Shown here piece by piece: positions 18,986-45,992 of a stretch of 64,000 nucleotides of DNA. Numbering within the stretch: position 1 is the first letter of the stretch; every line of letters begins with the position of its first letter. The translations under genes and the position numbers were made by a program. The notes below the pieces were generated by a model. The model saw nothing but the letters and a program-made list of their open reading frames with translations, ran no database searches and was not told where the DNA came from. The stretch covers positions 12,726,359 to 12,790,358 of the forward strand of contig OZ316893.1 in assembly GCA_973895155.1 (NCBI GenBank), read 5' to 3'. The stretch is from Marsupella aquatica. Taxonomy: Eukaryota > Plantae > Marchantiophyta.

Positions 18986-19423
18986 GCTCTAAATATTCAA
19001 TCTTGTGATGGAGCATAGTTTTGTGTAATACAGGTAGGAGGAGTTTAATTGCAGATAGTATTTTAGTCAATAGAGTATTGCATAACTAATCAATCAAAAA
19101 CTATTCTCCCAATATTTGTGGTGATTTTTTACAGTCATTTCCACTGTCATTTTCAGTGCCAAATACAAAAGCAATAACTGAGGCCAAAAGGCATAGTAAA
19201 CAGCACGGCACGAGCATTGATGGCTAGGTGTCGTGCTAGAGACATACAGTTAGTCAAATCGCAATGTAAGGCAGCCCCTCAAGGGCTCCAGCCTCACATG
19301 AGTGGGGTGGGGGTGGGGGGGGGAGAAGCAAGTAGAGTGATGGTGAATGAGGAAAAGACTGAGCAGACCAAAATTAGTTAAAACAAGGGAAAAGGAGGGG
19401 TTAAAGGTTTAAATCGAACAGAA

Positions 19424-19898
19424 TGTTGGGTATTTACTCTTACGTCTAGGTTAGGTATGACGTGGTTGGTACAACAACGTGGGTTGGTACAACTACGTGG
19501 TTAGGTACAACTATGTGATTAGGTACAACTATGTGGTTAGGTACAACTACGTGATTAGGTACAACTATGTGGTTAGGTACAACTACGTGATTAGGTACAA
19601 CTATGTGGTTAGGTACAACTATGTGGTTAGGTACAACTAAGTTGCACACTATATCATAAGAGGCATGTGTGCTTGGAGAGGTAGAACCAAGGCTCATTGT
19701 TATGGAGCCACTTGAGAGATAGGGAGAGCTTACACTGTGGAGACTCGGTATAGCCGACGGGCTTAGAGTTCAGTAAAGCTCTCTTGTGTGTTCCCGTGGA
19801 CGTAGCCTCAAGGAGGTGAACCACGTATCTCTTGTGTCGACTATTGTGCGTTGGATGGTTCATGGGCTTGCCGTTGCGATCGTCGTCTCTGCTCAACA
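19424..19898 (+). repeat. copia 5' LTR (contains ~10 x 18-bp GGTTAGGTACAACTATGT array)
   Basis: TGTTGGG...CTCAACA; direct repeat of 25553-26027. Confidence 0.96.
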
Positions 19899-19900
19899 AT

Positions 19901-19912
19901 TGGTATCAGAGC
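19901..19912 (+). promoter_or_regulatory. Primer-binding site (tRNA-iMet)
   Basis: TGGTATCAGAGC, 2 nt after the 5' LTR. Confidence 0.93.
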
Positions 19913-21056
19913 ATGCTTGGGAGGTGACGTGTGTTCGTGACGGGATTTCATGACGGTTTTTCCAGCGTTGAGTGTTGGTGGATTTTCCAGAGTTCCATCG
20001 CATGGAACTTGGAGTTTATGGGCTCAACGGATAGATCAGGGCAAGAGCTTTCTAACGGTGTGAAGAAATCGTTGAACGGAGCTCGTGGTGCAGAGAGATC
20101 TAAGTTTTCGTCGTTCTGGATTTTGTGAAGAAAGTTGGCAATCGACTCGGAGGGAGAAGCGTCAAGTGTTTTGACTCAACGGAGAGATTGAGGCAAGACG
20201 ATTGTTTTTGAGTCCGGGATTGGCTCTTTGATGCAAAGAGGAAGGCTAAGCAAAATCAATTACCTTGTTGGACTTGGTGAAGGCACCAAGTGCAATTGAT
20301 CAACATTCGTTGTTGACAAGGTACCATTTTTTTCTCTTTGAAAAACTGATTCGAAATTGGCTATGGCAATTTAGAGAAATTTGTCATCTTTACCAATTTT
20401 TTTCTCCCTCGTTCTTTCCTCGTTTTGGGTGCTTCTTATATCGATCTTCATCGCCTCGGAGTCTAGTTTCCAAATCTGAAATCGGATCTTGATTTTGTCA
20501 AAACCCGAGTGAGATATCTTGCGTTTGGTGTCGAGGGGTACATTCTGCCGTGTGTATTTTCTGCGCGCGCGACCAGATTTCGACGACGAAGGGTGGTAGG
20601 GGGTTTTGGGGGTTCGAGGACACATGTCAGCCCCTCGATTGTTCTTCCAAAATTCCCACAGGGCCTGTACAAGGGTCATAGAATATTCCAAAAAACCAGA
20701 GAGCTATTTTTTGACCGTCCGACAAAGATTTCATCCGCCGAACGGTAACTTTTTTGGTTATTTTTCGGCGAGGTCGTAGCCATTGAAGTTGGCAATGCAG
20801 CGCACCAATCACATCGCAATTCCGACAACGGGTTGTACTTGGTATTTCGGTTATTCCCTGAGGTGGTCAAAACGAGGGAGTTTCCCAAGGTTTTACCCAC
20901 CTCGACCGAAATTTGAATAACTTTTCTGTCAAATTTCGATTTTGATTTCGGTTTTCAGTATTGGACTCCTAGCTTTGTGGGCTATGCGGCGGTGTTGAGT
21001 TTTGAGTTTTTTGAGAAGTTGTGAAAAACAACATTTTTTGTGACTTTCTCATATGA

Positions 21057-22088
21057 GTGATTCGGAGGAGTTTTTTCGAAGACGTGGAACTTGAAGCACG
21101 AGGATCACCGCGGAGGTTTCAGGGGCAGAGAGAGGAGCAGGAGGAAGAGCACGTGACACCGATACCATCACCGGTGCGGCGTGTGGTGGAGGAAGCAGTA
21201 CTACTACCGGAGCTCACGGTAAAGAAGAAGATGGGGACTTTCAAGCTTGGGGGACCCAAGTATGAAGTGACAAAGTATGATGGGCGCTCTGACTACTTGC
21301 TATGGGAGAAGCAAGTGAAGGGAGTACTTTATGCGTCAGGGATGGGCCAACTGCTGAGCCCTCGTGAAGACGATGTTGATGAGAAACAATGGGACCGCAT
21401 GCAGGAGCAGGGAGTGTGGTGTGTTACACTCTATCTCATGCCTCCCATCATCAAGCAGTTGGGTGCACATAAGGATTGCATGTCCTTGTTTGCGGAATTG
21501 CAGAGCAAGTATCACCGCAAGGAGTTGTCGAACCGGCTCTACACTTCTTACAAACTGATGAGTTTCAGGATGAAGGAATCTGGTACGAAGTTGCAAGACC
21601 ATGTGGATGCTTTCAACGACATGGTCGTTGACTTGGAAAACCTTGGGGAGACTTTGAATGATGAGACGAAGGCTCTGCAGCTTCTTAGTTCATTGCCTCC
21701 ATCTTACCAGTCCCTATCACGAGTGTTGTTGCATCGTGATAGGGATACCATTTCATACAATGACGTGGTAAGTTCTCTGCTTAGTGATGATCTTCAGCAG
21801 AAGATGCACATCACGTCACAGCCTTCATCATCTGGTGCTGCCCTCAATGTTAACCGTGGGAGGAGTATGCAGCGACCAACTAGGGACCGTAGAACCCAGT
21901 TTAGATCTAAATCCAGATCTAAGTCCAAGGGTAAATCCCCTCAGAGGAGGCAGGTGACATGTTGGAAGTGCAACCAAGTTGGACACTTCAAGCGAGACTG
22001 TAAGGGAAAGGCAGCGGAAACTTCATCGGCAAATGTGGCTAGGGCTGATGGAGAAGCTGATTTACTCAATGATGAGTATGTTTTATGA
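21057..22088 (+). CDS. gag: copia Gag (first ATG at 21231)
   Basis: KYDGRSDYLLWEKQ, LLSSLPPSY and a CCHC knuckle CWKCNQVGHFKRDC. Ends in TGA, in frame with pol. Confidence 0.9.
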   Translation: MIRRSFFEDVELEARGSPRRFQGQREEQEEEHVTPIPSPVRRVVEEAVLLPELTVKKKMGTFKLGGPKYEVTKYDGRSDYLLWEKQVKGVLYASGMGQLLSPREDDVDEKQWDRMQEQGVWCVTLYLMPPIIKQLGAHKDCMSLFAELQSKYHRKELSNRLYTSYKLMSFRMKESGTKLQDHVDAFNDMVVDLENLGETLNDETKALQLLSSLPPSYQSLSRVLLHRDRDTISYNDVVSSLLSDDLQQKMHITSQPSSSGAALNVNRGRSMQRPTRDRRTQFRSKSRSKSKGKSPQRRQVTCWKCNQVGHFKRDCKGKAAETSSANVARADGEADLLNDEYVL

Positions 22089-25000
22089 AGTCGGGGGTAT
22101 GCCCTGTGCACGTCATCTAGGAGAGCAGATGATGTGTGGATTCTTGATTGTGCTTGCTCTTTTCATCTTTGTTACATTCGTGAGTTTTTCAGTTCTTACT
22201 CTGTTTCAAACGGTTCAGTTCTGATGGGAAATGATCACTCCTGTCAAATTGAGGGAATTGGGTCTGTGAAGATTCAAATGTTTGATGGCGCTGTGCGCAC
22301 AGTGTCCGGAGTCAGGTATGTACCTGGCATGCGTAAGAATCTGATTTCACTCGGTGTGTTGGATTCAAATGGTCATCAATGGAGCGTTATTGATGGTGAA
22401 CTTCAAGTCAGGTCGGGAGAGACAGTGATTTTGAAGGGGAGTAGACAAAAGAATTTGTATGTGTTACAGGGCAATACTGTATGTGGAGAGGCCAATGTAA
22501 CCAAGTCTCACGAGGAGATGACTCAACTGTGGCATTCACGGCTAGGCCACATAAGTGAGAAGGGTTTGGCTATCTTACGGAAGAATGGACTCATTTCTGA
22601 TTTGCAATCTTGTAAATTAGAGTTTTGTGAGCATTGCATTCTTGGAAAGCAGCATCGTCGTGCTTTTGGTGTTGGAACTCATCGTTCCAAAGCGGTTCTT
22701 GAGTACATACATAGTGACGTGTGGGGTCCATCCCCGACTCCCTCACACTCTGGAAAGTTGTACTATGTATCATTTATTGATGATTACTCAAGATTTGTGT
22801 GGATTTATTTCATGACGCATAAGTCTGATGTCTTGTCCATTTTTAAGAAGTGGAAGGCCCAGGTGGAGAATCAGACTGGAAACACGATCAAGTGTTTGGA
22901 TACAAGGGTGAAGAGTCTGAGGTCAGACAACGGCGGGGAGTACACTTCAATGGAATTTGAAGAGTACTGTTCAGAACAGGGGATAACTCGCCATCTCACC
23001 ACAGTTTATACTCCGCAGCAAAATGGTGTCGCTGAGAGGCTCAATCGGACACTGTTGGAGCGGTCACGGAGTATGTTGAGCCAATCAGGTTTACCACAAG
23101 AATTTTGGGCAGAAGCTGTCAATACCGCAGCTTATTTGGTAAATCTTTCTCCTTCTAGTGCTATCAATTTCAAAACGCCGTTTGAGATGCGCTATAAGCG
23201 GCAAGCAGACTATCATGGCTTGGTAATTTTTGGAAGTGATGCATATGCTCTCACACCAAAGCAGAATAGGACCAAGTTGGATCCTACCTCCAGGAAATGT
23301 GTTTTTCTTGGGTACCAGAGTGGTGTGAAAGCCTATAGGCTATGGGATCCTATTGCCTGTAAGCTCGTTGTCAGTAGGGATGTTTCCTTCAATGAATCCA
23401 GATTATTGAAGGAGGGGGAGAATACTCAGGTCTCCCGTACTGACAAAGGAAAATCTCCTATCCCGGATCTCGTTGAGGGGGAGATTGGTTATGAGGTGCA
23501 TGACCGGAGAGAAGGAGTTGCTCCAATTATGGAGCTGGTTCCTGTGCCAGAGGAACCAGAGGAGTTTGTTGATGCTGGTGAGCAGCAAGTAGATGCTGTT
23601 GAGCTTCAAATTGTACCAGCACACGCAGATCAACCGGAGTCATCGGCTAGAAGAACATCTGGTCGCACTGTACGCGCTCCATCAAGGTATGGACAGTGGG
23701 TTGATTCATCTCAACTGCAAGAGGATGATTTTACAGCTGATGATGAGGGTGATGCGTTAATTTTGGAAGAAGGAGAACCTTCTTCATTTCATGAGGCAAG
23801 TGCTTCAAAGGAGAAGCAGAAGTGGACTGCAGCAATGCAAACGGAGATGCAGTCACTAAAGGACAACAAAACTTGGGAGCTTGTTAAGCTGCCTAAGGGT
23901 CAGCAAGTGGTGGACAGCAAGTGGATTTACAAGCTGAAGGATAATTCCATAGGAGGTGGATCGAAGGTCTACAAGGCTAGATTGGTAGCAAAGGGATTCA
24001 CACAAGAGAAAGGTGTGGATTACAATGAGGTCTTCTCACCAGTTGCTAAGTACTCTACAATACGACTATTGTGTGTACTTGTTGTAATGTTTGGTCTGCT
24101 CCTAGATCAGATGGATGTTGTCACAGCTTTCCTCTATGGCACATTGGAAGAGGTGATCTTCATGAGACAACCGCTAGGTTTTGTGAAGAGAGGACAGGAG
24201 GAATTGGTTTGCAGATTGCTGAAATCCTTGTATGGGTTGAAGCAGTCACCAAGACAGTGGAACAAGCGGTTTGACGATTGGATTCGGTCACAAGGTTTTC
24301 ACAGAAGTGTATTTGACCCTTGTGTGTATTTGAAACCGGTGAAGAATGTTGTCTTTGGGTTCATTGTTTTAGTACTTTATGTGGATGACATGTTAATTGC
24401 AGCCAAGGATAGGTCTGAGATTGTTAAGCTCAAGGCACTGCTTAGTGCAGAGTTTAAGATGAAGGACTTAGGGCCAGCTAAGAGGATTTTGGGTATGGAG
24501 ATCACTAGGGACTTGGAGGCTGGCAAGCTATGGTTGACGCAGAGCAGTTATGCGAGGAAGGTAATTGCAAGGTTCAACATGGAGAATAGCAAGCCAGTAA
24601 GTACCCCGTTGGCTCCACACTTCAAGTTATCATCAGCGTTCTGTCCTACGGATGACACAGAGAAGGGGTTGATGTCAAAGGTTCCATATGACAAGGCAGT
24701 GGGGAGTCTCATGTATTTGATGACTTGCACTAGACCTGATCTTGCCATGGCTATGGGCAAGGTGAGCAGATACATGTCGAATCCAGGGAAGGTACACTGG
24801 GAAGCAGTGAAGTGGATTCTCAAGTACTTGAAGGGTACCGTGGATCATGGTCTTTTATTTGATGCGAATGCAAAGAATGCTAGATCATTGATTGGCTATG
24901 TAGATTCTAACTATGGACAAGATTTGGACCGAAGGAGATCAACAACAGGATACGTGTTCACACTTGGCGGTGGATGCATAAGTTGGAGGTCTACTTTGCA

Positions 25001-25361
25001 GAAGTGTATTGCTCAGTCTACTACAGAAGCGGAGTATGTTGCAGCTGCGGAAGCAGCAAAGGAAGCGATTTGGTTGGATAGACTTATCACTGAAATGGGA
25101 TTGCCACAGGGGAATGTGAAGCTCCATTATGATAGTCAAAGTGCGCTCCACCTTGCTGTGAACCAGGTGATGGACAGCAGAGTGAAGCACATTGACGTCA
25201 GGTACCATTTTATCAGGCAGGCTGTGTCTGATAATTTGTTTGAGCTAGTCAAGATTGATGGTAAACTCAACCCGGCTGACGCATTTACCAAAGTGATTCC
25301 TTTGGAGAGTTTCTCTAGACACCGTGACGTATTGCAGGTTTTGCAATTGCATCACAAGTAG
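22089..25361 (+). CDS. pol: copia Pol (protease, integrase, RT, RNase H)
   Basis: PR-like WILDCACSFH; integrase WHSRLGH..CEHC, HSDVWGP, RSDNGGEY, QQNGVAER; RT YKARLVAKG, LYGLKQSPRQW, LYVDDML; RNase H EAEY and KHIDVRYHF. Confidence 0.95.
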   Translation, partial: SRGYALCTSSRRADDVWILDCACSFHLCYIREFFSSYSVSNGSVLMGNDHSCQIEGIGSVKIQMFDGAVRTVSGVRYVPGMRKNLISLGVLDSNGHQWSVIDGELQVRSGETVILKGSRQKNLYVLQGNTVCGEANVTKSHEEMTQLWHSRLGHISEKGLAILRKNGLISDLQSCKLEFCEHCILGKQHRRAFGVGTHRSKAVLEYIHSDVWGPSPTPSHSGKLYYVSFIDDYSRFVWIYFMTHKSDVLSIFKKWKAQVENQTGNTIKCLDTRVKSLRSDNGGEYTSMEFEEYCSEQGITRHLTTVYTPQQNGVAERLNRTLLERSRSMLSQSGLPQEFWAEAVNTAAYLVNLSPSSAINFKTPFEMRYKRQADYHGLVIFGSDAYALTPKQNRTKLDPTSRKCVFLGYQSGVKAYRLWDPIACKLVVSRDVSFNESRLLKEGENTQVSRTDKGKSPIPDLVEGEIGYEVHDRREGVAPIMELVPVPEEPEEFVDAGEQQVDAVELQIVPAHADQPESSARRTSGRTVRAPSRYGQWVDSSQLQEDDFTADDEGDALILEEGEPSSFHEASASKEKQKWTAAMQTEMQSLKDNKTWELVKLPKGQQVVDSKWIYKLKDNSIGGGSKVYKARLVAKGFTQEKGVDYNEVFSPVAKYSTIRLLCVLVVMFGLLLDQMDVVTAFLYGTLEEVIFMRQPLGFVKRGQEELVCRLLKSLYGLKQSPRQWNKRFDDWIRSQGFHRSVFDPCVYLKPVKNVVFGFIVLVLYVDDMLIAAKDRSEIVKLKALLSAEFKMKDLGPAKRILGMEITRDLEAGKLWLTQSSYARKVIARFNMENSKPVSTPLAPHFKLSSAFCPTDDTEKGLMSKVPYDKAVGSLMYLMTCTRPDLAMAMGKVSRYMSNPGKVHWEAVKWILKYLKGTVDHGLLFDANAKNARSLIGYVDSNYGQDLDRRRSTTGYVFTLGGGCISWRSTLQKCIAQSTTEAEYVAAAEAAKEAIWLDRLITEMGLPQGNVKLHYDSQSALHLAVNQVMDSRVKHIDVRYHFIRQAVSDNLFELVKIDGKLNPADAFTKVIPLESFSRHRDVLQVLQLHHK

Positions 25362-25540
25362 AGTTTTCTTAAACATTCATTGTAATTACTGATATATGCT
25401 CTTCCTCATTCCTATGTATTAGGCTACGGCTTAGTTCTGGTTTGCTCTAGTTAGAGAGGGAAACCGGTTTGGTTTCTGTCCAGAACTTCCCGCTGAGGGA
25501 TCATATACATTGGCAGTATTACTCTCCCCTAGACCAGAGT

Positions 25541-25551
25541 CAAGGGGAAGA
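25541..25551 (+). promoter_or_regulatory. Polypurine tract of copia element
   Basis: CAAGGGGAAGA just before the 3' LTR. Confidence 0.8.
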
Positions 25552-25552
25552 T

Positions 25553-26027
25553 TGTTGGGTATTTACTCTTACGTCTAGGTTAGGTATGACGTGGTTGGTA
25601 CAACAACGTGGGTTGGTACAACTACGTGGTTAGGTACAACTATGTGATTAGGTACAACTATGTGGTTAGGTACAACTACGTGATTAGGTACAACTATGTG
25701 GTTAGGTACAACTACGTGATTAGGTACAACTATGTGGTTAGGTACAACTATGTGGTTAGGTACAACTAAGTTGCACACTATATCATAAGAGGCATGTGTG
25801 CTTGGAGAGGTAGAACCAAGGCTCATTGTTATGGAGCCACTTGAGAGATAGGGAGAGCTTACACTGTGGAGACTCGGTATAGCCGACGGGCTTAGAGTTC
25901 AGTAAAGCTCTCTTGTGTGTTCCCGTGGACGTAGCCTCAAGGAGGTGAACCACGTATCTCTTGTGTCGACTATTGTGCGTTGGATGGTTCATGGGCTTGC
26001 CGTTGCGATCGTCGTCTATGCTCAACA
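25553..26027 (+). repeat. copia 3' LTR
   Basis: Direct repeat of 19424-19898, followed by TSD CAGAA. Confidence 0.96.
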
Positions 26028-26109: not shown

Positions 26110-27110
26110 TCTTTTTTGCAACATTTGACATATTTTATTCAAGAATATTTGTTGTGCAAGGTGAAAAAATATGTAAAAAATACTATGTTCTTTTTATCAA
26201 ACTATTATAGTGATATCTTTTTATACTCCAGCATCCCGTATTTTGCACAATTATATCTTTACTCAACAACAGTTTTTGTGCAATAATATATTCTAAAAAA
26301 GAATTTTGTTATTCAGCAATGTGTTTTACACCACGATATACTTCCCAACAACATCTTTAGCATAATGATATCTTTAATTAAATGACATCTTTATGCATCG
26401 CATGGGGATCCCGGCGGGGATTGATAGTACAGCGACTCAACGGCCATTTTTGCTCAACCCGGGGCTAAACCCTAACCCTAAACTCTAACCCTAAACCTAT
26501 CATATAATGTTGTGCCAATTTATATTGCCACAACAATCCTGAGTTTTGGGGGTCTCACTATATGGATGTCTCCCCATCACCTACGACGTTTTTAGGCCTT
26601 GGATCTCCTAAAATGTAAGAAAAATATATATTTTTCAACCCCTATAAATTTTTCAACTCTAAAAAATTGATTATAAGGATCCTAATGTTCTTCTCAATTA
26701 TAAATCTAGAGAGAAGACTCTATTGTTCTTCTCATAAAATTCTTAAGTCTTCCCTTTGAACCATATAATGACCGTATAGTGCGTTGCAAGTGATGTGCCA
26801 TTTTTGTGGAAGTGAAACCCCCAAGTCTTGAGTGACTCTTGGTCGACTCATTCCTTCCTTCCTTGACCTTTTACTTCACAATGTCTTTTACATATTAATG
26901 ACATCTTGGGTGGAACAATACATTTTTTCTTACAAGTCTTTTACTTCACCATATCTTTGGCAAACTGACACTATTTTTAATTTGTTAACAACATCGTTGG
27001 CAAAACAACTTTTTTGTTGTTAACGACATCTTTCACATAACATCTTGGGAGACACAACATATATTTTCTTATTACAACATCTTTTGTGCAATGCACGAGT
27101 ACTGAGCTAG
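26110..27110 (+). mobile_element. Non-autonomous Helitron-like element (3' end at 27110), interrupted by a MITE
   Basis: Recurrent ACAACATCTTT units and a 3' hairpin GTGC-AAT-GCAC followed by CTAG|T. The 5' boundary is not resolved. Confidence 0.5.
26545..26825. mobile_element. MITE, CTCGGGGG-TIR family (older copy of 63506-63802)
   Basis: Ends TTTGGGGGTCTCACT and AGTGAAACCCCCAAG. 8-bp TSD TCCTGAGT/TCTTGAGT (1 mismatch). Internal sequence is collinear with 63506-63802. Confidence 0.85.
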
Positions 27111-27969: not shown

Positions 27970-28105
27970 TGTTGTGCGCATACACATCGCTACACAACAT
28001 ACATCGCTTGTCACACATATCCAAGCATAGTCACAATCTAACGACACAAACCTAAGAGAATGATCTACAAATGGAACCCATGTCCATACATGCCCAAAAC
28101 CCACA
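27970..28105 (-). repeat. Putative short 3' LTR of the gypsy element
   Basis: On the minus strand a purine-rich tract AGGGGAGCGAT is followed by TGTGGG...CACAACA (136 bp). The partner LTR is not in the window, so this is unconfirmed. Confidence 0.45.
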
Positions 28106-28280
28106 ATCGCTCCCCTAGCTGGAAGTGAGGTCCCCTAACTCTAGCTAGCCATGAGTTCTACAAGGTTGATATACACCTTTTTAGGTGTGAAGATCAGGAG
28201 GCCGGGTGCAAGTGAGCCCCATCGATCACCTACCTGCAATCTATATCTTCCATGAGAACACGAATGATAACTAGTCGGCA

Positions 28281-31200
28281 TCACCGACATTGAGGACACA
28301 ACCATGATCCACTAGGAATCATGTGCAAGGGTGGTGTCAAACACGACATGTGCCATCCTCTAGAACACCGATCACAAATCAACATAGTAGCTGCTCCCTG
28401 AGCAGACCCACACAAAATACACTTCAAGCCAGCACGAACATGTGCCAAGCTTGGATCCACAGTACCATCAATGTTTGGAAGATGACATGGCGCACAAAAT
28501 TTACGCACATGATCCTTCCAAACCATACCATCACGTCCTTGCAATATAAGGACTCCAGAAGGCAACACTTCACGCACACGTAAGATTGTTCGCCCTACGG
28601 TCACATCAAGCGTTGTTGGTGCTGTCTGCTGCAAATAAACATAATCGCCAGGATGAAATCTTCTAATCCTCGTGCGATAACCTCCTCCACGAATAGTAGC
28701 ATACCGCAAAGTATCACGATGTTGGGCAATAGCAAGGTTGTCAAAGGCCATGGGCATGACTCTCTCAAAAACTAGTGCCCTGTCTGAACAAACCTTGACC
28801 CAAACATTTGGATCATCCAAATCCACAATAGTTGCAACATCACGACGAATAGCCGCTGGCAAATCTGGTTCTCTACCATAGAGCAAGAAATAAGGTGAAA
28901 AGGATGCAAGTGATGCTTGTCGACTGAAACGGTAGCCCATAGCTAACCAAGGTAGTTGGAAATCCCAGTCTCCCAAATGACCAACCTGCAAGCCATACTT
29001 ACGCAATCCTCTCTTCACAGTTTGTACAACTCTTTCTGCCAATCCATCTGCCTCAGGATGATCGCGAGAAGTAGTACGATGATCAATCAAAGCTTGCTCA
29101 CACAAACCCTCAAAATCTCCACGGAATTCCGTGCCCTGATCAGTCAACACCTCAGCTGGTGCTCCAAAGTGACTGAGTACTCGATCCAAAAATGTGGTAG
29201 CCACTCCACTAGCTTTATCTGGCAATGCCACTAGTTCAATCCACTTGGAGAAGTGCTCCACCATAACCAAAACATACCGATTGTGACGTTGGGTAAGAGG
29301 CAATGGACCAGCAAAGTCCAAATTCCATCGATATCCCAAACCCATGATCGGTAGCGGATGCAACTGGGGAGTGGGAGCATTGAACGATGCTCGCACTCGA
29401 TCACAAACCACACACTTAGCTATCAATTGCTGGACATCAGTGTGCATACCACGCCACCAATACTGTGTCTGCAGCAAGCTATAAGTGCGCTTTACACCAA
29501 AGTGCCCTAACTCTTCGTGCGCATGTCGCACCAAATGTACTCGTTGTGACGGTTTTGGTACAACCAACACCTTCCCATCACGTAGTACCCTCAAAAGATG
29601 GTTTCCTTCCCATCGAAATCTCTTGGCTCGTTGTAGAACCCTATCACGCTCCTTAGCATCAACATTGCCACCAATGGAGCCACCATGCAAATATTCCAAC
29701 ACTCTCATATCGTTGTGAATATCTTGCTGTCCAAAAACTACATCACCAACATCCATATCCGAAGACACATCATCTACTCCATCCAATGAAGTAAAGTCTA
29801 CGGATCCACTGCATGCTGGCACCCAACAAAGGAAAGCAGATGCATGCCATCCTGGCACCATCTCCTTATCTGTCTCATCATGCCATCGGGCTCCAGTCTC
29901 ATCCATTTGACTGGTACATGGATTGCGGCTCAACCCATCTGCATCCAAATTCACTTTTCCAGGTCTATGCACAACCTGAAAATCATACTCTTGCAACAAC
30001 AATGCCCATCGTGCAAGCTTCCCTCTAAGCTTATCAGACTCCATTAACCACTTGAGAGGTTGATGATCAGTGATCAAGGTGAACAAATTACCAAACAAAT
30101 ACCAACGGAAATGTGCCACAGCCCACACTGTTGCCAAACACTCTCCCTCATAAGAGCTATACTTAGCCTCTGCTGAATTGTTGGATCTACTGACATACGC
30201 CACAACAAACTCATTCCCCTCATCATCCTTCTGAGTCAACACTGCTCCAAGTCCTACTCCACTCCAATTAGTGTGAAGCTGAAATGGTCGCCCTGAAATG
30301 GGTCTTCTCAAAATAGGTGTTGACGCCAGTCTTTCCTTCAATTCTTGGAAAGCATGCTCCTGGTCGTCTCCCCAAATCCACTCCTGATCCAACTTAGTGA
30401 GTATAGTTAAAGGTAACTTAGCAAGCTGGCTAAATCCTTTAACATACCTCCTATAGTAGCTCGCCAATCCCAAGAATGCACGAACTCTGCTCACATCAGT
30501 AGGACGAGGAATATGTGTAATGGCCTCCACCTTAGTCTGTTGCACACCCAATCCTCCTGGGTAGATAGTGTGGCCCAAATACTCAATCTTCTCTTGAAAG
30601 AACTTACACTTGCCGGGATGGAGCTTCAATCCATGTTCCCTCAATCTCTCAAACACAATCTGCAAGTGTCTCTGATGTTCTTCCACAGTAGAAGAATAAA
30701 CCAAAATATCATCAATATAACATCTGACAAAATCCAAACCTGCAAGGATTCGATCCATGACTCTCTGGAACTCAGCTGGTGCATTCTTCAACCCAAATGG
30801 TAAGAACAACCACTGATACAAACGATCTTTGCCATAAGAATCAATCCCCCAGAATGCTGTCTTGGACCTATCAGAATGCCTAATTGGCAAGTGATGGTAC
30901 CCCGCCCTGAGGTCCAACGAACTAAAAATCCTTGCATGCCCCATTGCATCAAAGATCTCCTCCGGTGTGGGCATGGCATATCGATCAGATTTTGTCTGAC
31001 GATTAATAGGCCGGTAATCACCGCACATTTGCCTATCCGTGTAATTGCCATGCACATTCTTCTTGGCTGGCATCACTGTGGCAGATGCATACTCTCCGTA
31101 TGAAATCTCCACCAAACCAGCTTCCAACAAATCTTGAGTTCTACTCTGAATCAACGCCCTCTCCATATCACTATATCGGTATGGTCGTCGAAAGATTGGC

Positions 31201-31364
31201 GCATCACTAGCCAATTCAATCTGAATACCAGGGCCCTTCAATGTTCCCAAATCCTTCATGCTAAATGCAAAACAATTCCAATAACTCTTCAAGAATTGAT
31301 ACATTCGACGTCTCTCACCCCCTGTCAACTTAGGGCCAATTTGTGGCTCCCAACTCTCCATCAA
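28281..31364 (-). CDS. pol: gypsy Pol C-terminal part: RT, RNase H, integrase, C-terminal PHD finger
   Basis: RT DYRPIN, LPFGLKNAP, YIDD; RNase H LHTNWS (expected D is N), YSSYEGE, TDHQPL; integrase H..GH..CVVC, LDFAGP, TDQG, AER. The end CILC..CDRCSRGWHMSC..WLCPQC is a C4HC3 PHD. Confidence 0.93.
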   Translation of the reverse strand: MMESWEPQIGPKLTGGERRRMYQFLKSYWNCFAFSMKDLGTLKGPGIQIELASDAPIFRRPYRYSDMERALIQSRTQDLLEAGLVEISYGEYASATVMPAKKNVHGNYTDRQMCGDYRPINRQTKSDRYAMPTPEEIFDAMGHARIFSSLDLRAGYHHLPIRHSDRSKTAFWGIDSYGKDRLYQWLFLPFGLKNAPAEFQRVMDRILAGLDFVRCYIDDILVYSSTVEEHQRHLQIVFERLREHGLKLHPGKCKFFQEKIEYLGHTIYPGGLGVQQTKVEAITHIPRPTDVSRVRAFLGLASYYRRYVKGFSQLAKLPLTILTKLDQEWIWGDDQEHAFQELKERLASTPILRRPISGRPFQLHTNWSGVGLGAVLTQKDDEGNEFVVAYVSRSNNSAEAKYSSYEGECLATVWAVAHFRWYLFGNLFTLITDHQPLKWLMESDKLRGKLARWALLLQEYDFQVVHRPGKVNLDADGLSRNPCTSQMDETGARWHDETDKEMVPGWHASAFLCWVPACSGSVDFTSLDGVDDVSSDMDVGDVVFGQQDIHNDMRVLEYLHGGSIGGNVDAKERDRVLQRAKRFRWEGNHLLRVLRDGKVLVVPKPSQRVHLVRHAHEELGHFGVKRTYSLLQTQYWWRGMHTDVQQLIAKCVVCDRVRASFNAPTPQLHPLPIMGLGYRWNLDFAGPLPLTQRHNRYVLVMVEHFSKWIELVALPDKASGVATTFLDRVLSHFGAPAEVLTDQGTEFRGDFEGLCEQALIDHRTTSRDHPEADGLAERVVQTVKRGLRKYGLQVGHLGDWDFQLPWLAMGYRFSRQASLASFSPYFLLYGREPDLPAAIRRDVATIVDLDDPNVWVKVCSDRALVFERVMPMAFDNLAIAQHRDTLRYATIRGGGYRTRIRRFHPGDYVYLQQTAPTTLDVTVGRTILRVREVLPSGVLILQGRDGMVWKDHVRKFCAPCHLPNIDGTVDPSLAHVRAGLKCILCGSAQGAATMLICDRCSRGWHMSCLTPPLHMIPSGSWLCPQCR

Positions 31365-31589
31365 AGCTGTGATGTCTTCCTTTGGGGTTGAAGAGATAGT
31401 CGGTGGTTGCTATTTAGCAACAATTTGAGCAGTCCCAACCTGCTCAACAATCTGTCCTGCCTTGGCCAATCCTGCCATAGGTCCATGGACTGTCTGCTTG
31501 CCCCCAGCTGTGGTCACTACTGTCTCAATAGCCCGCAAGCTCACCAACGGACGATCAGTAACACCAAAAGAGCACATTCGCAATTGTTC

Positions 31590-32550
31590 AGCTAATCCCA
31601 AGCTGATAATCCAAGTCAAGCAATTCAAATCCATGGCTTGACCAAGGACTTGGCGGCGTGAACTCTCTGACACAGAGGCAACCGCAGTGGTGCCAATCAA
31701 AAATCCCATAGCACGCTCTCTTTCATCAGCAGTAGGTTCCACTAATTGCTGTAGAGCTGTATCCCATACAAGTCCAGGCCCACCTGCTCTGAATGCATAT
31801 GAAGTAGAATGGCTCACAAAAGTGGGTAATGCACAACGTGGGCGACCAACTACATTGACCACTACCAATGGAGGTCTGTCAGGCTGGGTCACACCTTGTG
31901 CATGATGCCCTGGATCCAAAATATCATCCACCACCAAGGCTGCTGAGCGAGGAATGCTATCAAATGCTCGCTTCAACACCTCACAAGGTAACAAATTAGT
32001 CCACCACAAGCGTGGACGATGTGCACGAGAACCCACACGTGCAGCATCCAATAACACAGCAGGTCCAATCCAAGACTTAACCTGATGAACGCTGGCAACA
32101 AGTCGATGATGATCATCACCCAATAATGGCACATTCTCCAAAATGTAAGCAGGGGAATATGTCTGATGCAACTGAAGATGACGCAATACCCGTAACATCT
32201 CCCAAAACAATGCAGATCTTGGATCATGAAGTCCATGTCCAACTCCAGCTCTAGATTGACCCTGACATGGCCAACCCGCAATCATCAAATCAATGGGGCC
32301 AATGCGATCCAAATGATCCGCCCCCACCAATGAAATATCAGCTGGCAATGCATGTTGATAACCACGAACGCCATCCACTGGCAATAATTATGGGTAACGT
32401 TTGACCAACAATGCCACATGACGTAATGAGACTCTACGTGCTGTCTCATCAGTCTCCACATACAAATAACGGCACACAGGAATGCCGGCTTGAAGAATGG
32501 CAGCCAATCCAGTGCTAATTCCACCAAATAAATCCAACAAACAAATACCC
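31590..32550 (-). pseudogene. DNMT3-like C5 cytosine DNA methyltransferase domain inside the gypsy polyprotein (one in-frame stop at 32388-32390)
   Basis: Motif I LLDLFGGISTG, II YVETD, IV GPIDLMIAGWPCQ, VI YILENV, VIII AHRPRLWWTNL, IX ERERAMGF, X RQVLGQAM. Same frame as the RT ORF. Confidence 0.9.
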
Positions 32551-32699
32551 TCATGTGGATATTGCCATGCAATAGGAGTAGTATCCAGTGGGGAAAGAGT
32601 CACTGGTCCATTTGCAGTTGATTGCTCTGCTCCTGATTGCGGTGTAAAAGCATGACGCCATGCATCATGTATCAATCGGGCCGCACTTTGTGGCAAGGC

Positions 32700-33318
32700 C
32701 TATCCAGTACCCCATACTGGTGTCATAATACTATCAATGGGCAATCCATGCATGAAGTGTTCCTCATGTGCCTCCTCCACCGTAGGGACATCTACTGCAT
32801 GTGCGTTACCCTCAATCAAATCATCAGCCCAAGTAATCAAACTACTGAATGCTACCAAAGATAATGGTGCAGATTTGGGGCCTCCAACAGGTCCACTAAA
32901 TCGCACTGGCAATTGGCTCAATCGAGCATCTCCAGATTGCCAATCGGGTCGATACGACACCGATTCATTCCAAAAATCAAGAACAAATCCCATAGGATAG
33001 AGAACTGTACATCCCACCAAGACATCATATGACTCAGCCTTAGTCAAAATAGCTCGAGCCTGGATCCGTGAGTTATCCTTTGAATGATCCTCTTGAATCC
33101 TAAGTTCAAGTGCTCGTCGAGTGATATGTTGTGTGGTGTGTAGGTCCTCCCAATGAAGTCTGAATGGGAAAGGGACACTCCTCCAAGTCATCAGGATGCA
33201 ATCCCAATCCTCTTATCGCAAACTTACCCAACATCAAGGACTGAGCACCAGTATCCAATAACACTCGCTTTGGCTGGTATATTGCTCCAGAAGGCCCAAC
33301 TAATCGGAAGATACCACT
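32700..33318 (-). pseudogene. gypsy aspartic protease and linker
   Basis: RVLLDTGAQ active site and YDVLVG C-terminal motif. One frameshift near 33145 and a TAG at 32700. Confidence 0.8.
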
Positions 33319-37914: not shown

Positions 37915-40900
37915 TCACTGCAGACTAACACACTCTGATGGCCAGAGCACAAGAGATCCTACTGCATCTGCAATTATTTCCTGAGGTGGATCATCGTCTC
38001 TATTCAGAAATGGCAAATTACAATCAAATACAATCACTGTAGTCAACAACACTACTACATGGTCATCCGGGACCACTTTGCCATGGAATTTTGCATGATC
38101 CGGTCGCAAAATGCCTGTACCCACACATACCTGCGAGTCATCCTCCCATGATAGAAGATTATGGGCTGGCTCTGCTGTGGCTATCACCTCCACCTTACCC
38201 TGGCTGTTTTTCTTGGCTTTCCTGGGTGGCTTATACATGACATTATTCATACCTTGGTTGCGAGTCATGACTTTGGCACGAGTGTTTTGTGATGGTGATC
38301 GAGAATTGGCTACACTCTTCTTCAAAGAATCTGCATCCATATTTGACACTTCTGATTGTGTAGCAGGATTTCCCTGCAACATCATCTCAGTATCTGCCAA
38401 CATTGTACTTGCTTCAATTGAAGCATCTACAATCTTACTTGCATCCAATGTTGCTCCCAAGTTTCGACGTCGCTTCACCCTACTCCCACTTGGTTGAGAG
38501 TCTGTCAACTCTGCATCAACTACAATTCAGTGTCATGTCCAACATAAGTCAATCACTCATCACATGTGCTAAATGTACATGTCACCAACCACAAAGTTGT
38601 CACTATCTCCTTACCATTATGAATAGCCTTCTTCCCCTTCTTTGCCATTGCCATATGCTCCATGTCTGCTTCTGTTGATCAATAAACACACCACAATATT
38701 TAGGTTGAATCTATTAACCACTGAATTGTTGCTCAACATTCATATAGAGGAATTTAAAGCATCAGCTTACCTGATACCTCCTTGGCTATGGTCACTGAGG
38801 CACTGGGCACATCTTCTTCATTATTGCTCTTTGAATCACCTGATACATCAATCATGATGTCACATCTGATCCTAGTTCATCCAACCAGTTCTTACAGAAA
38901 AGATTACCTCCAACCGGCTTAAGCTTCACAAAACTCCATGCACTTTTCAAATGTAATGTACTGGATCATAGCAGGTTACCTGTCTCAGCAACCTTCTTGC
39001 CCTTCTGCTTATTGATTACAGGGTCCTTCTCTGCCTCCACTCTTCCTGCATTCAAACCATTCACTCAATTCATGAAAACTTACTTCTAACATTTGAACAT
39101 AGGACACAATGAACAATGGGCCGGTGTCATTTCCATACCTGTGTCAGATTTGCCAATTCTCTTTTTTGTTAACAAGGGCACACTTTGTACAATGTTGCCC
39201 TCATTGTTTGGTTGGGAACCACCCAATTTTTCAATCACAAGCTTGAAATTAGATTCCACTGATGCAAGAAGGTTCGCTACAGATGCCTCCACAATATCCA
39301 AAGGATCAGCCAATTTACTTTCCACTCGAGGGAGTCCACACTCTAATGACTTCAACCGTTCACACATCTCTGTGAGAGTTGTAATAGTTCCCTGTCATAA
39401 CACAGCTTACATATCTCAGATAACTGTCCCCAAGAACTGGTTGCTTACTTCCTACTACATTTCTTTCTGATGCTCAAGGCCAAATAGTCACAGAACATAC
39501 ACAATTACAACATAATCACCTGTTTGGAAGTCACACTTGTCACCTCACTCCTTTGTTTCATGAACTCCTCTCTCACTTCTTGTGCTGATGGTTCTTCACC
39601 TGTCAATTTCTTCTGCAGTCCACATCAACATACATATGAATGAAACCAAGTGTTGATTGTCAATGAAAATGTAATAATGGTAGCAAGATGATAAGTTTGA
39701 GGCTTACTATCAGGCATGTCACTGCCTTACCAATTGTTCTTTCATTGGAGCATAACTTCCTCTCCCAGCCTGTGAAAGGTGTTTCACTTTGCCTCGAGCA
39801 TTTGACATCAGTTCACTCTTGCTCTGTCCAGCCTCCGACATGAACCCTTTGATTAACCGTGTCCATTGATCCAGTTCCAATGATGGGGGTGGTGGCATTC
39901 TCCTGTTAGAACCATTGTCTATCCACATCCTTTTCAACCTATGCCTCTCTTGTTTCAAAATCCTCATTGCATAATCTGATATGCAATCTTCAACTGGGCC
40001 CTTACCATCATTACCAACATAGTCCCACCATTCAAGAATGTCCTTGCAGATAGCAGCCCAATCAGCTTTGTTCTGACTCCTAAACTCTGTAATGCTCAAA
40101 TCTAACCAACGCAATACTTCTCCTCTTAGGTTAGAATGCCAACGGTTCTTACCATCACATGTGGGAGTTATCCAACCTTCGGAATTCACTTCTACTTTAC
40201 CAAATTTGTTACTGTCTCCTGCCTTGGTACTCCTTGAAGCGCTACTAGGTGTCCCTCCACGGCCTGGTGTCCCCCCACGGCCTGGGGTCCCTCCACGGCC
40301 TGATCTCCCCCCACGGCCTGGATTGCATTGTCCAAACCTCCCTGGAGTCCCTGCACATTTACAGGATCCATTTACAGTCACTTACATTAGGTAAGTATGA
40401 ATCATAAATCCTGCTGCCAAATATACATTGGACTTCAGAGCAATTCTGCAATGACCAAGTTACCTCTCCCTTGGCGCATAGATGGTTCTGGACCACCTGT
40501 CCTATTGCTTTGTCTTGATGAATTAGGGCCGTTTCTCCCGCCTATGAATGATTGCCGCCTATCTGAACGTGGATGGCCTTTGTTGTTTTCGTGATTGTCC
40601 CAATCAGAGTCTGCATACCAACAGGTACATGCCACACTCATGGACCTGTAAGATAAACTCTTTGCCCTAGCTACACATCAGATAAGTCCATATTGAGCTA
40701 AATCTCTACTACCATCACAAAATCACTAGCACAAGGCACTTACTTGTCCAATCATCCTCCTCACCTTTCCATTGCCCTCTGTACCCGTCTCTACCACGCT
40801 CTGGGTGTTCATATTCATCCCATCCATCTTCTGCTCCATCATAGTCATCATCATAATTATCAGGCGTCCCTTGCCAATAACTCTGGCTCCTTCTAGGGTA

Positions 40901-41810
40901 TGGATTATGTGATTTCTCTCTAGCTGCCCACCTACCTAGGACTTGATGAGGGCCCTGGGCCCTCACTCTTACTATATAAAGTGAACCCCCCTGAGAACAG
41001 ACACCCCCCATGTACCCCTTCTTAATATTTTTGTTCACAAAAAAAATCCCCTTGTTAATGTAAAAATATTAACTTTTCTTATTAAATTTTATCCTTTTGT
41101 AAATTATAATATAGTTTTTCAAGGAATTGAAAACATCCTTGAATTTTTAAAATTGCAAATATCATACTGAAATAGATAAGACTTTATTTTGCATAGGGGA
41201 CTTGTATGTTACGCCTTTGTTTAGGGTACATATTTTATATAGTTAAACAAAATTAGTACCAGAGAATTATAGTTCTTCCTGTAGTATACAGACAAGCATG
41301 GCTGCACTATCCTCTCAGTGTTCCTAAAGCCCACGAAACCAAACTTGCCTTATGACGACAAATAATTAAATATCTGATTTACTATATGAACATGTGCGCA
41401 AGTAAAGTGATGACATGTGTGTCAACCATATAGTGACATGTGTACTTGGCATTTTGGGTACCCTTGCATAAGATTAATCTGACATGTATTTGATAAGAGC
41501 CTTATTACTAATATTGTGCTGAATATATATACAGGGATGTTGCCTACTTTAAAAACTATTATAAAAATTAGTTTGCATTACATTAAAAACACCCTTGCGA
41601 TGTTCGCACGTCCTCCTTGTATTAGTAACACTTAGGGCCCAGGGGATGAGGGCCCTGTGCATCCTGCACAGGTGCATTTTTCTGTGAGCCCCCTGCATCT
41701 GGGTCTCCATCCATATCCAATCTTTCCTCTTCACCCCACTCTCCAAGCCCCATGTCTGTCTCCATGTCATCACCCTCTTCCCCCATAGCTTCTGCACAGC
41801 ACCCACAACC
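37915..41810 (-). pseudogene. Multi-exon second CACTA ORF (TnpA-like position), interrupted by a MITE
   Basis: Exon-like ORFs 37915-38508, 39086-39367, 39719-40381 (GGTPGR repeats, DQWTRLI..S..MSNARGK), 40435-40641 and 40715-40952. The exon reads through (PVQDAQGPHQVLG) once 40953-41644 is removed. Confidence 0.6.
40953..41644 (-). mobile_element. 692-bp non-autonomous derivative (MITE) of the P-like element, inverted relative to it
   Basis: TIRs CCCTGGGCCCT; TSD GATGAGGG at 40945-40952 and 41645-41652. Its two halves match the two termini of 33319-61817. Confidence 0.93.
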
Positions 41811-41963: not shown

Positions 41964-44900
41964 CTATTGCAAATCATCAACCTCATCATATTCCATTTGC
42001 CCAGGTTCATCATATGTCTCTCTCAATGTTAAGGGGATGTAGTCAGTCCCTGCCCGAGTTGGAAGTACAGTCTCATGACTAGGATGCTCGAATGCAGCAT
42101 GGTCATCCAAACTGAACTCTACTTTACTTCCATCCATCCGCCTGTTCCGTGCTTGGCTATGGCATACCACCCTCCAGCCATGTGACTCCTCCACATCTGC
42201 AAAGAAAGCCTGTTCAACTTGGCTAGGGAAAACAAAAGGCTCAGACCATTCTGGTACTCTGGACCTAAAATTGGCCAACAAGAACCCATCATGATCACGC
42301 TTCATGGTGGCCCTTGGTCTCTGCCACTCTGATTTCACCCATGATCCCTTCATCAATATCACTGGGACACTTGTGTTACCATAATTCAACACCCAAATGT
42401 CGGTCAACTCCCCCACGTAACCCATCTTCATCCACCCCCTCTGTTCTTCAGAGGTTCTCTGCTCAAACACAGAAATCAAACCACAATCATATGATACACA
42501 ATGGTCACCCTGCTCATCCCTCACTCGATAATGATTTCCATAAGCTCTCATCCGTTTGTAGGTCAGAATAGACAATCGTGGTGGCACAGATAGAAGATAC
42601 AAATCCTTCTCCATATCTGGGTGATGTCTACTATGCTCTCGAATTGTCACCCGAATCCACTGCTCGAACTGTGGGAAGGGATCCTGCTGCCCATAGTGTG
42701 CAGCTTTTTGCATATCATATTCCCTGCAATATGAGGTACAGGCATAGTTAGGTCTAAACAACATATGACAACCTAAGATCACCCTTGGAACAGACAAGAA
42801 GCATCACAACAAAGGCAAGTCAATTCAATCACTCACCTCCACCATGGTTGCATAGGCTCTGTGTTTGCCAGCACATATGAATGAGCCTTGTCTCGAATCG
42901 CAACAGGCAGCTGAACAGCACGTCCCACACCTTCAACAACCTCGCCACTCACTCCATCATCTTCACCAGATTTCCAAACTCTTGTCATAGCTTCACCAGA
43001 CCCAGCCATGTACTCTGTTAGGAATCCCAACGTCTCATCCTTAATGTACCCCAATGCCATGGAAGCCTCTGGCCTGTAGTATGTTCTCACATGACCTTTC
43101 AACAACTTCATGTATCGCTCCATAGGGTACATCCATCTGGTACTGACTGGCCCATACTGCCCTAGCTCTTCTACCACATGGATTAGGAGATGAGTCATAA
43201 CATCAAAGAAAGCAGGGGGAAGTATATCTCCAAGTCACAGAGGACATAAGCAGCATCCTGCTTCAACTGCTCCAATCCTTGGGGATCCCACACTTTCACA
43301 CATATACGGCGAAATACATTGCACAGTCGAAGAATGACATTGCGGACTGGTTTCTGCATGAGACCTTTGAGGCATAGGGGCAGAATGTGCTGCATCATCA
43401 ACACATGGTAGTCATGTGTTTTCATACTGCCAAGTTTATTCTTTGTAATATGCTTCTTAAAGGCACCAGCATAGGCAGAGGGCACTTTCAGACAGCTCAA
43501 TCTATACAAGAATGTCTTCCATTCATCCTGTGTGCACACATAGGGAGCTTGGAACTTGAGAAGTACATTGGGATTGCTTGCATGGGGCTTCAACCAAAGG
43601 TGAGGGCGAATCCCCTTCTGTTGCATATTAGCTCGAACTGCTCCTGTATCTTTCTCACCCGACAAGAACTTCAGCAAGCTCTCACAAATATTTTTCTCAA
43701 TGTGCATGACGTCCACATTGTGTTTGTTGGGCTCGAATTCTTGCACTCCACAAAGCAAAGAATTCAACAACAGAAACACTAATTAACCACATAGGAGGAT
43801 TGTAACCAACATCAATCCACCATTGCTCCAATCTAAAATTGCAATCATACAGGGGCTGGAGGCTAAGTACATTACCCTCCAGTACTCCAACTCCAAGTCC
43901 ATCAAGGTCTGTCTTTTCACACCGTGTTTCACCACTGGATCCTCAGGTTCTCGATCAGTGGCACTTCTCTTGTCCCAATCAGCCTTCCTGGCTGCCCACC
44001 TCAGGACTTGCTCTCTGGTGACCCTCTGTGGTGGGCCACGAAGCTCTGTTTTGTTGTTGAAGTGTGCAATTTGAGACCGTGTGTGCCTGTAAGGATGATC
44101 AACAGGCAGATACCTTCTATGCCCCTGAAATTTCATACTGTGCAGGGCATGCGACCACTCACTTGTCACATTTTTCCCACATGGTGTGCACCCCACATAG
44201 CCCTTTGTCACTCGTCCAGATATGATGCCATGGCCTGGGTAATCTGCTATATCCAGCAAACAAATTGCATGCAGTCTAAAGGGGCTGGGTCAAAGAAGCC
44301 CCTTCAGAACATCATGGGTTAACACCCCTTCTATCCACAAAGTCTTCCACTCTTCCACTGCTGGAGCCAACATGATATCTATGAATTGCTCGGTCACAGA
44401 AGCTGGTCCAGGGATTAACAGCACCATCATGACAAAAAACCTCTTTGTAGTCATCCATGGGGGAAGGTTGTAATTTAGCAGCGTAACCGGCCAACATGAA
44501 TAACGGTTGTTTTTGTCTCCAAATGGGTTTACTCCATCCAGTGATAGACCAAATCGAAAGTTCCGCTTCTCTGCAGCAAACTGTGGCCACCTCTCATCAA
44601 CAAATTTCCAATGGTTGGAATCTCCAATGTGACGCTGCAGGCCATCACTGCTCTTGTTATCATGAGTCCATGTCATCAGCTTGGAAATGGCAGGGCATCT
44701 AAACAGACGTTGTAGTCTAGGAATGAGAGGAAAATGACGAAGAACCTTGGCAGGATGTGTACATTTCCCTACATTCTTGTACCTGTGCTTACCACAATGA
44801 GGGCATGTCAATTTATCTGCATGCTCTTTGCGAAAGAGAACACACCCATCAGGGCACGCGTCAATAGACACATAGTTCAGCCCAAGGTTAGACATCAATT

Positions 44901-45666
44901 TCCTAGCCTCGTACATATTTTTTGGAATTGAATTACCATCTGGTAACACATTTCGGCGCAGGAAGGTCAACAACTCTATCACAAATATATTGGGAACATT
45001 GTGATTGCCACAGATGTTCAACAACAACACGACAAAACCCAGCTTGGAGCAGTTCGACCCCTTGTAGATAGGAATGCAAGCTTCTTTGATGTGTTTTGGG
45101 CCCCCAAACACCCACTCCCTCTCTGCTGCACCTTCCCCAATGTCAAAGTCAGGTTCAGCTTGGCCGTCGCCAATGTGTGGCTGCAGTTCATTGTCCTCTT
45201 CTGATTCCACTGTGTCGTAAAAAGCATCAAGGTCTTCAAAAATCTCTTGAACCATTCTTGGGACATCCATCCCACCGTCCTCAGTGATTGCCTCTGCCTC
45301 TCCATCTTGGTCATCCACGTTCTCATGTTGGACCCCAGGACCATCCCCTGCACAGTCTATGTCCTGCTCTACGTAGTCTCTACGCCTAGCTGTATTAGAA
45401 TCCACAAAGTCAGCTCTCCACTCTTCATCAGAGGAGTCTTCTTCTGCTGGTACATTCCAAACCCTCCACCGAGGGTGCCTTTCATGCCGCAGCAGGTGAA
45501 GGTGCACAGTGTTCAAACTCAACGACTTGAATCCTTGGCACTGTGTGCATGGGCATCTCATCCTCCTACTCCTACCTTGGGCGGCCCGGGCTTGTTCACG
45601 CATCCACAATTTAGAATCATGATGCCTAATCCTAAATGGGTTGTGAAGAGGCAACCTTGGAGCCAT
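41964..45666 (-). pseudogene. CACTA TnpD-like transposase (Transposase_21 / DUF4218 / DUF4216 type), with stop and frameshifts
   Basis: IDACPDGCVLF, CPHCG, LRHFPLIPRLQRLF, LSLDGVNPFG, YSCWPV.LLNYNLPPW, DYPG, DVMHIEKN, KTHDYHV, RWMYPMERYMKLLK, EPFVFPSQVEQAFF. In-frame TGA at 44290 and a frameshift near 43200. Confidence 0.92.
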
Positions 45667-45992
45667 CACTATACACACGCACTCAGCACCCTATCATTTT
45701 ATTATGCAAGTGAAAAATACACTTCCTGTTAAGGATTTCACCCCCGACTGTACTTGCCAAAATACGTAACGTTCCAAAAAAACAAAAAAACAAAAAATAT
45801 AGGTGCCTGAGTCATGTACCTATTCTCAAGTGAATGAGACAAAATTCCTAAATGTTTGAGGGTGTCAACTCCTCCGCTGTCCTCACATGTACTGCCTCTG
45901 CACGTACATCCATGACCATATCAGAGTCCAATCATGTATAGTCATAGACACAGGTGCCAGGTGCGAGACCGGTGTGAGATGTCCTCATCTTA

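Follow-up and report, generated by a model that had tools for sequence, protein, structure and literature searches.

The window, a 64,000-nucleotide stretch of the Marsupella aquatica genome (contig OZ316893.1, positions 12,726,359 to 12,790,358, forward strand), carries a complete DNMT3-like C5 cytosine methyltransferase (DNMT) domain on the minus strand at 31575–32564. An initial annotation, made from the sequence alone, had placed this enzyme inside a Gypsy retrotransposon, between the protease (PR) and the reverse transcriptase (RT), and the domain order of the Ty3/Gypsy-type element confirmed that position. The motifs it had cited (I, IV, VI, VIII, IX and X) were all located on the minus strand in canonical order, together with motif II: motif I (LFGGISTG, 32531–32508), II (YVETD, 32462–32448), IV (AGWPCQG, 32279–32259), VI (ILENV, 32144–32130), VIII (HRPRLWWTNL, 32021–31992), IX (ERERAMGF, 31724–31701) and X (RRQVLGQAMD, 31658–31629). 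A search with the profile PF00145, proposed as a check of the assignment, matched the stretch 32564–31575 with E=1.3e-11 and 44.9 bits, against a curated cut-off of 22. Among PDB sequences, human DNMT3A matched best (E=9e-12); DRM reached no better than 2e-3. The unpermuted motif order, unlike that of DRM, and the best sequence and fold matches to DNMT3A bear out the original view of the enzyme as DNMT3-like.

The Gag region of the element is interrupted twice. Its N-terminal piece (63803–63981, minus strand) was 87 % identical by tblastn to residues 1–60 of the Marchantia ORF1 proteins P0004 and P0005, and the element continues past it in the 5′ direction, out of the window. A MITE-like insertion (63506–63802) with ~14-bp terminal inverted repeats, an 8-bp target duplication and a sister copy at 26548–26825 separates this piece from the main part of Gag (61818–63505, minus strand), which includes CCHC-like zinc knuckles, ends in the Gag–protease linker and matched P0004 residues 58–619 (45 %) and P0002 residues 1–105 (67 %). 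A 28.5-kb block (33319–61817), a MITE interrupted by further insertions, then splits the element. This MITE has the terminal repeat CCCTGGGCCCT and the 8-bp target duplication AGTGGTAT, found at 61825–61818 and 33318–33311, and the Gag half (63981–61818) and the remainder of the element meet in the Gag–protease linker on either side of it. The MITE was itself later split by ~28 kb of other insertions; an unbroken sister lies at 40953–41644.

On the other side of the block lies an aspartic protease (32890–33318, minus strand), with a frameshift near 33140–33170. Its catalytic part (33318–33142) is in a different frame from the rest, a point missed initially. Its match to Asp_protease_2 (E=0.0056) was below the cut-off, compared with E=8e-5 to 2e-4 for the proteases of intact relatives. 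The pieces of ORF1 sum to ~1254 codons, near the 1278–1281 of Marchantia relatives. Beyond the DNMT, ORF2 (28281–31409, minus strand, 1042 codons) encodes RT (31025–30564), RNase H (RH; 30374–29985), integrase (INT; 29552–29055) and a PHD finger (28421–28287), the Pfam domains in the open reading frame 31409–28284 being RVT_1, RT_RNaseH, Integrase_H2C2, rve and PHD. The order Gag-PR-RT-RH-INT with a DDE integrase is that of Ty3/Gypsy elements. A polypurine tract (28106–28120, minus strand), agreeing in sequence with relatives, and a terminal segment B (27970–28105, minus strand) follow, and the element ends there in ...CACAACA with no further A-B unit. No tRNA genes were found in the 64-kb window.

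Translation of 33215–28278 gave four open stretches on the minus strand, in one frame and with a single stop between each. It had been proposed that the four (32700–33191, 32388–32696, 31410–32384 and 28281–31364) once formed a single polyprotein; the common frame and single stops stand, and the single polyprotein does not, given a stop at 31412–31410 that is conserved in the family. The three stops are in fact unlike. The TAG at 32702–32700 (minus strand), in the protease–DNMT linker, is replaced by a residue in 33 of 36 aligned relatives and by a gap in three, and the TAA at 32390–32388, inside the DNMT domain, by a residue in 58 of 60; both represent decay. The third is the conserved end of ORF1, TAG CAA CCA (31404–31412, minus strand), which fits the UAG-CAR-YYA readthrough context. 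The copy in the window is dead, decayed and split, as seen from the protease frameshift, the stops at 32702–32700 and 32390–32388, and an RNase H motif that reads TNWS compared with TDWS in the intact relative L019.

Relatives comprised 61 longer and 145 similar-length sequences, each set drawn from ~8000 scored candidates. Those named included Marchantia polymorpha, M. paleacea, Calypogeia fissa, Riccia sorocarpa and four Sphagnum species, and no vascular plant or hornwort was present among the 120 of the 145 similar-length relatives that were listed by name. In M. polymorpha, five proteins (P0004, P0304, P0305, P0311 and P0312, two with Mp_Vg locus tags) are full-length Gag-PR-DNMT ORF1 products annotated as hypothetical; examples of such full-length copies are BBN20516.1, BBN10775.1 and BBN08134.1. 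Locus L019 is intact, with 1359 codons of Gag-PR-DNMT, the junction TAG CAG TTA and 1047 codons of RT-RH-INT-PHD, and L082 repeats this layout with TAG CAA TCA before a 1047-codon ORF2. The latter was the single match in prokaryotic genomes; it is a Gypsy element present in full on a 9.3-kb contig assigned to a cyanobacterial metagenome-assembled genome, and the contig is most likely mis-binned eukaryotic DNA.

An exhaustive search gave 179 clusters (50 % identity) at E<=1e-30. Among the best 150 of these, 52 had the DNMT either flanked by RNase H and integrase or immediately ahead of integrase-PHD (with patterns including RT-RH-DN-INT-PHD in 21, DN-INT-PHD in 11 and DN-INT in 11, where DN is the DNMT), 10 were PR-DN proteins ending after the domain, three had one long frame from PR/DNMT through RT, and 65 contained the DNMT only. 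Trees of element sequences (a quick RT tree with seven near-duplicate loci left out, and a FastTree DNMT tree) separated the PR-DNMT-stop group from the RH-DNMT-INT group, with support of 99 and 96 for RT-RH and of 94 and 99 for DNMT. The sister group in which the DNMT follows RNase H and precedes integrase (P0037–P0061, P0418, L039, L042 and L046) is large and GC-rich. In this RT-RH-DNMT-INT-PHD type, to which a Scenedesmus pol also belongs, motif IV often reads WECQD in place of WPCQG.

The viral contigs, phages and prokaryotic genomes searched yielded no close donor of the element DNMT. Matches to viral contigs numbered 30, all of them weak and partial (E>=4e-12, no longer than ~145 residues). 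All 138 phage records were below 60 %, and the only two that covered 80 % of the query did so at 23 %; phage and prokaryotic enzymes in the top rows reached only 23–31 %, or were partial matches.

The junction between DNMT and RT was surveyed in 52 rows (51 metagenome loci and the window), of which 29 could be anchored on both the DNMT and the RT leader, whereas the other 23 were truncated or deleted or had a different layout. Every one of the 29 anchored rows had an in-frame stop (22 TAG, 7 TAA), directly followed by CAR in 28. The full CAR-YYA was present in 8/29, representing five of the six lineages (of 21, 3, 2, 1, 1 and 1 rows) and including the window; L047 and L082 also carry UAG-CAR-YYA at this point. 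Four spellings occur (CAA CCA, CAA CTA, CAG TTA and CAA TCA), which vary precisely at the degenerate positions and change the encoded residues. Elsewhere in these coding spans, away from the junction, only 2 of ~4650 stop triplets had CAR-YYA. The lineage of 21 rows, near-copies that are closest to Sphagnum proteins (84–92 % in the best cases), has the weaker context CAA-CCC/CCT rather than CAR-YYA, mostly followed by ATG. Five Marchantia ORF1 proteins (1278–1281 aa) end 124 residues beyond motif IX, P0002 and P0303 share their end residue with the window ORF, and full-length ORF1 proteins have a fixed end point within each lineage. Since every anchorable locus has the stop and five of six lineages the TMV-type context, the junction stop is not decay. 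In the window's clade, the layout is Gag-PR-DNMT, stop, RT-RH-INT-PHD, with the DNMT closing ORF1, and not the stop-free GAG-PR-DNMT-RT-INT-PHD polyprotein that had been envisaged. Distant relatives (P0374, P0392, P0395, P0062 and L045) have DNMT and RT joined in a single open frame, and the stop is therefore a feature of the clade rather than a requirement.

For the DNMT motif alignment, 65 relatives yielded 54 full domains, which with the window made 55, 11 partial domains being dropped. The catalytic motifs, whose loss in other copies had been named as grounds for doubt, were kept across these 55: among the top 12 variants of each motif, EN of motif VI was found in all those listed and the catalytic Cys in all listed ungapped variants. 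A profile built from 75 relatives scored 99 bits with DNMT3A, 62 with DRM and 40 with M.HhaI. Folding of the DNMT from a single sequence gave only pLDDT 33, and an alignment-based model of the intact L019 domain reached pLDDT 94.9. The top 32 PDB folds listed as neighbours of this predicted structure were all DNMT3A/B/C (best E=3e-20); when aligned by structure, the domain and human DNMT3 are 21–23 % identical. The domain search of ORF1 detected neither PWWP/ADD nor any other accessory domain of the host enzymes.

The dN/dS ratio of the DNMT, likewise proposed for study at the outset, was 0.10–0.24 in eight unsaturated comparisons between diverged copies (one further comparison was saturated) and 0.36–0.63 among decayed near-copies, as would be expected for dead copies. 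The DNMT evolves faster than RT (0.10–0.13 versus 0.02–0.08 in the same pairs). As judged from these ratios, the domain is under purifying selection across the family.

The ends of the element were followed in relatives. Members of the Sphagnum-like lineage start with a 342-bp segment A (TGTCATG...), and end in a 112-bp segment B (...GACA/AACA) that lies directly after the polypurine tract. A 4-bp target duplication was present in all four relatives with both ends (L005, L024, L026 and L040). The order was A-coding-B-A-B in L024 and A-coding-B in L005 and L040, rather than a coding region between two identical terminal LTRs. Segment B with the junction to A was also seen in L019, L025 and L082, and in these and in L024 the B|A junction forms a palindrome (CAYGACA-NN-TGTCAYG) ~110 bp past the tract. 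No tRNA-type primer site was found after segment A in the relatives. At three of 10 loci (two being the same insertion) the 16 bases after A show perfect complementarity to part of A itself, 26 bases past a TATA-like box, and complementarity of 9–10 bases was found at that site in four other loci. This complementarity suggests self-priming. Reverse transcription would make an LTR of B+A, and the integrase would use the internal palindrome, via a circle or by internal cleavage. The A-coding-B form may also have come from later recombination.

The reading that we prefer, with a probability of roughly 0.6, is that the element represents a bryophyte Ty3/Gypsy-type family in which ORF1 encodes Gag, protease and a DNMT3-like enzyme, ORF2 follows a stop that is likely read through, and the methyltransferase, which would be made at Gag level, likely methylates the element's own cDNA. 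Low-frequency readthrough of the stop between DNMT and RT is probable on the evidence of the junction sequences. The CAR-YYA context is essential for readthrough in TMV and gave 6–32 % readthrough in plant reporters (PMC2754532); the conserved gag-pol stop of Tca2 need not be bypassed through local context (PMC2194720). RNA structure 3′ of the stop was weak in the six sequences analysed (z −0.9 to −2.7). ORF2 might instead be expressed by splicing, with TAG as the 3′ acceptor as in Ogre, by re-initiation or from an internal start, and the ATG two codons past the stop in the Sphagnum-like lineage would suit re-initiation. However, ORF1 and ORF2 adjoin without a spacer. A splice acceptor does not need CAR-YYA in the downstream exonic bases, yet these six bases follow CAR-YYA in five of six lineages; upstream of the stop there is no sequence conservation. 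The first Met of ORF2 varies in position (3–117) and falls inside RT in L019 and L082. Expression by any of these routes is thus considered quite unlikely.

With readthrough, most ribosomes would end after the DNMT and a minority would read on into RT and integrase, so that far more methyltransferase than reverse transcriptase would be made. The conservation of the stop suggests that the methyltransferase is invested in at Gag level, which argues for a role inside the particle. By analogy with other LTR elements, the DNMT would be packaged with Gag and the domains released by the protease in the particle, where an abundant de novo methyltransferase would meet new cDNA and methylate it; the PHD finger on the integrase might, again by analogy, help to choose chromatin or the integration target. 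That the enzyme is catalytically active is likely, in view of the conserved chemistry and the CG activity of Symbiodinium element enzymes. Retention as a non-catalytic DNA-binding or structural part would accord with the faster evolution of the DNMT than of RT and with the Klebsormidium enzyme's lack of activity in yeast, but is very improbable, as motif I, the catalytic Cys, ENV and RxR-type residues have been kept over saturated synonymous distance. Still further from consideration is the idea that a dead element picked up a piece of host DNMT3 just once, or lies beside it by chance: the copy in the window is itself dead, but the DNMT is intronless, in frame and at the same position in dozens of liverwort and moss relatives and in the intact L019 and L082. 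These family data rule that explanation out and also answer the concern that sister copies might lack the domain.

Whether the substrate is the cDNA is a more finely balanced matter, and we would put the chances as even. The CpG observed/expected ratio was 0.50 in the window copy and 0.51 in a neighbouring Copia element without a DNMT, and because the depletion is equal, CpG/CHG composition is uninformative about self-methylation. The methyltransferase could act on host chromatin, at the insertion site or genome-wide, or slow the element to the host's benefit. An abundant ORF1 product could reach the nucleus, the host DNMT3b of moss carries out de novo CG/CHH methylation, and these options are listed by de Mendoza et al. 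(PMC5890265). Against this, fusion to Gag predicts packaging with RNA and cDNA, and the domain search revealed no targeting domain in ORF1; we regard these alternatives as unlikely. A wider version of the cDNA reading is possible although doubtful, namely that the elements form a large unrecognized green-lineage group, intact in Marchantia and other bryophytes, that would combine a de novo DNMT3 at capsid stoichiometry through readthrough, tRNA-free self-priming, DDE integration at a palindrome inside the LTR (by a circle or internal cleavage) and pre-methylated copies.

DNMT retrotransposons of dinoflagellates and Klebsormidium, both named in the initial annotation, are described by de Mendoza et al. 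(2018; PMC5890265). The closest known system, compared here by description only, is indeed the Gypsy-DNMT3 elements of Klebsormidium nitens, KnitGypsy-Dnmt3. As described there, these share with the window family the Gypsy domain set, a DDE integrase, an intronless DNMT3-related domain and purifying selection. The DIRS-like A-coding-B-A-B repeats described for them were seen here in the relative L024, L005 and L040 being A-coding-B and the window copy ending at B. Their DNMT lies in the Pol ORF with RT and RNase H, whereas that of the window family closes the Gag ORF, ahead of a stop conserved in the clade, and their host is Klebsormidium rather than land plants. The words PHD and readthrough are absent from the main text of that paper. 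When the Gypsy DNMT of Klebsormidium was tested in yeast no methylation was seen, a result the authors considered inconclusive, and SymbioDIRS-Dnmt3 of Symbiodinium methylates CG de novo in yeast (PMC5890265). The latter also has a DNMT3-type domain in a retrotransposon polyprotein, but is a dinoflagellate DIRS element with a tyrosine recombinase and, according to the authors, an independent capture (PMC5890265). EpiLTRs of Euglena and Cymbomonas are LTR elements with a cytosine methyltransferase and a chromatin reader, as here; according to the preprint, they possess a DNMT sister to DNMT4, a Dam methylase and a chromodomain, in contrast to the DNMT3-like enzyme, lack of Dam and PHD finger of the window family (bioRxiv 10.64898/2026.05.21.726589).

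An in-frame stop between two ORFs is also found in the TMV replicase, where the context is UAG-CAR-YYA as at the window junction (PMC2754532), in MuLV gag-pol, SIRE1 pol-env and Tca2 (PMC2754532, PMC2194720). The window family differs from the other stop-readthrough elements, as these sources describe them, in that the stop follows the protease and an accessory enzyme, which would place PR and DNMT at Gag level. Host DNMT3 enzymes of bryophytes and animals share the unpermuted catalytic domain (PMC6453930), and the element DNMT is unlike them in having no introns and no detected PWWP/ADD or other host accessory domains. In the text available, later papers mention Gypsy-DNMT3 only as ‘streptophyte’ elements (PMC12344493, bioRxiv 2026.05.21.726589), and the accessible text of a plant LTR survey (PMC6317226) mentions neither Marchantia nor such a domain. 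No description of a land-plant DNMT3-bearing Gypsy element, or of the readthrough layout, was found in the literature outside subscription journals and repeat databases; the preprint trees (bioRxiv 2026.05.21.726589) could include bryophyte sequences. New here are the land-plant host range, the Gag-linked DNMT before a likely readthrough stop and the internal integration site in relatives.

The interest of the locus lies in the family, the window copy being a fossil. Bryophytes have DNMT3-bearing Gypsy elements, whereas a 2019 opinion paper reported their absence from ‘land plants, such as tracheophytes’ (PMC6338049). The lack of ordinary paired LTRs may have caused LTR-based surveys to miss the group, and where bryophyte genomes are annotated, the ORFs of the elements can be miscounted as host DNMT3 genes. 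The role of a retrotransposon cytosine methyltransferase was left open in the 2018 report, in which the Klebsormidium enzyme was not shown to be active (PMC5890265), and the presence of the family in M. polymorpha, a transformable model, makes the question directly testable.

Several other features were identified in the window. The nested insertion series at 33319–61817 and 40953–41644 includes a MITE family, 692 bp long and flanked by 8-bp target duplications, one copy of which is split by ~28 kb; from the length of the duplication, the family is presumably hAT-like. Within the ~28-kb split are CACTA/En-Spm transposase remnants (Transposase_21 at 44293–45690 and Transposase_24-like at 39722–40381). 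Beside them, on the minus strand at 46706–48857, lie an ORF with a BRCT domain (E=2e-13) and an NSD-like PHD ORF, which are possibly DNA transposon cargo. Long ORFs (270–390 codons) on the plus strand at 56144–60849, with no Pfam match in the three tested, are probably a DNA-transposon remnant. A young Copia element (19420–26027) has 479-bp LTRs that are 99.6 % identical, and its Gag ORF (21057–22085) and Pol ORF (22089–25358) share one frame with a single stop between them. A multi-exon ABCB transporter gene occupies 6004–13900 on the minus strand; its last exon (6007–6543), which marks the host as most likely a leafy liverwort, shares 90 % identity with a protein of Calypogeia fissa, compared with <=70 % for the remaining 119 matches listed.
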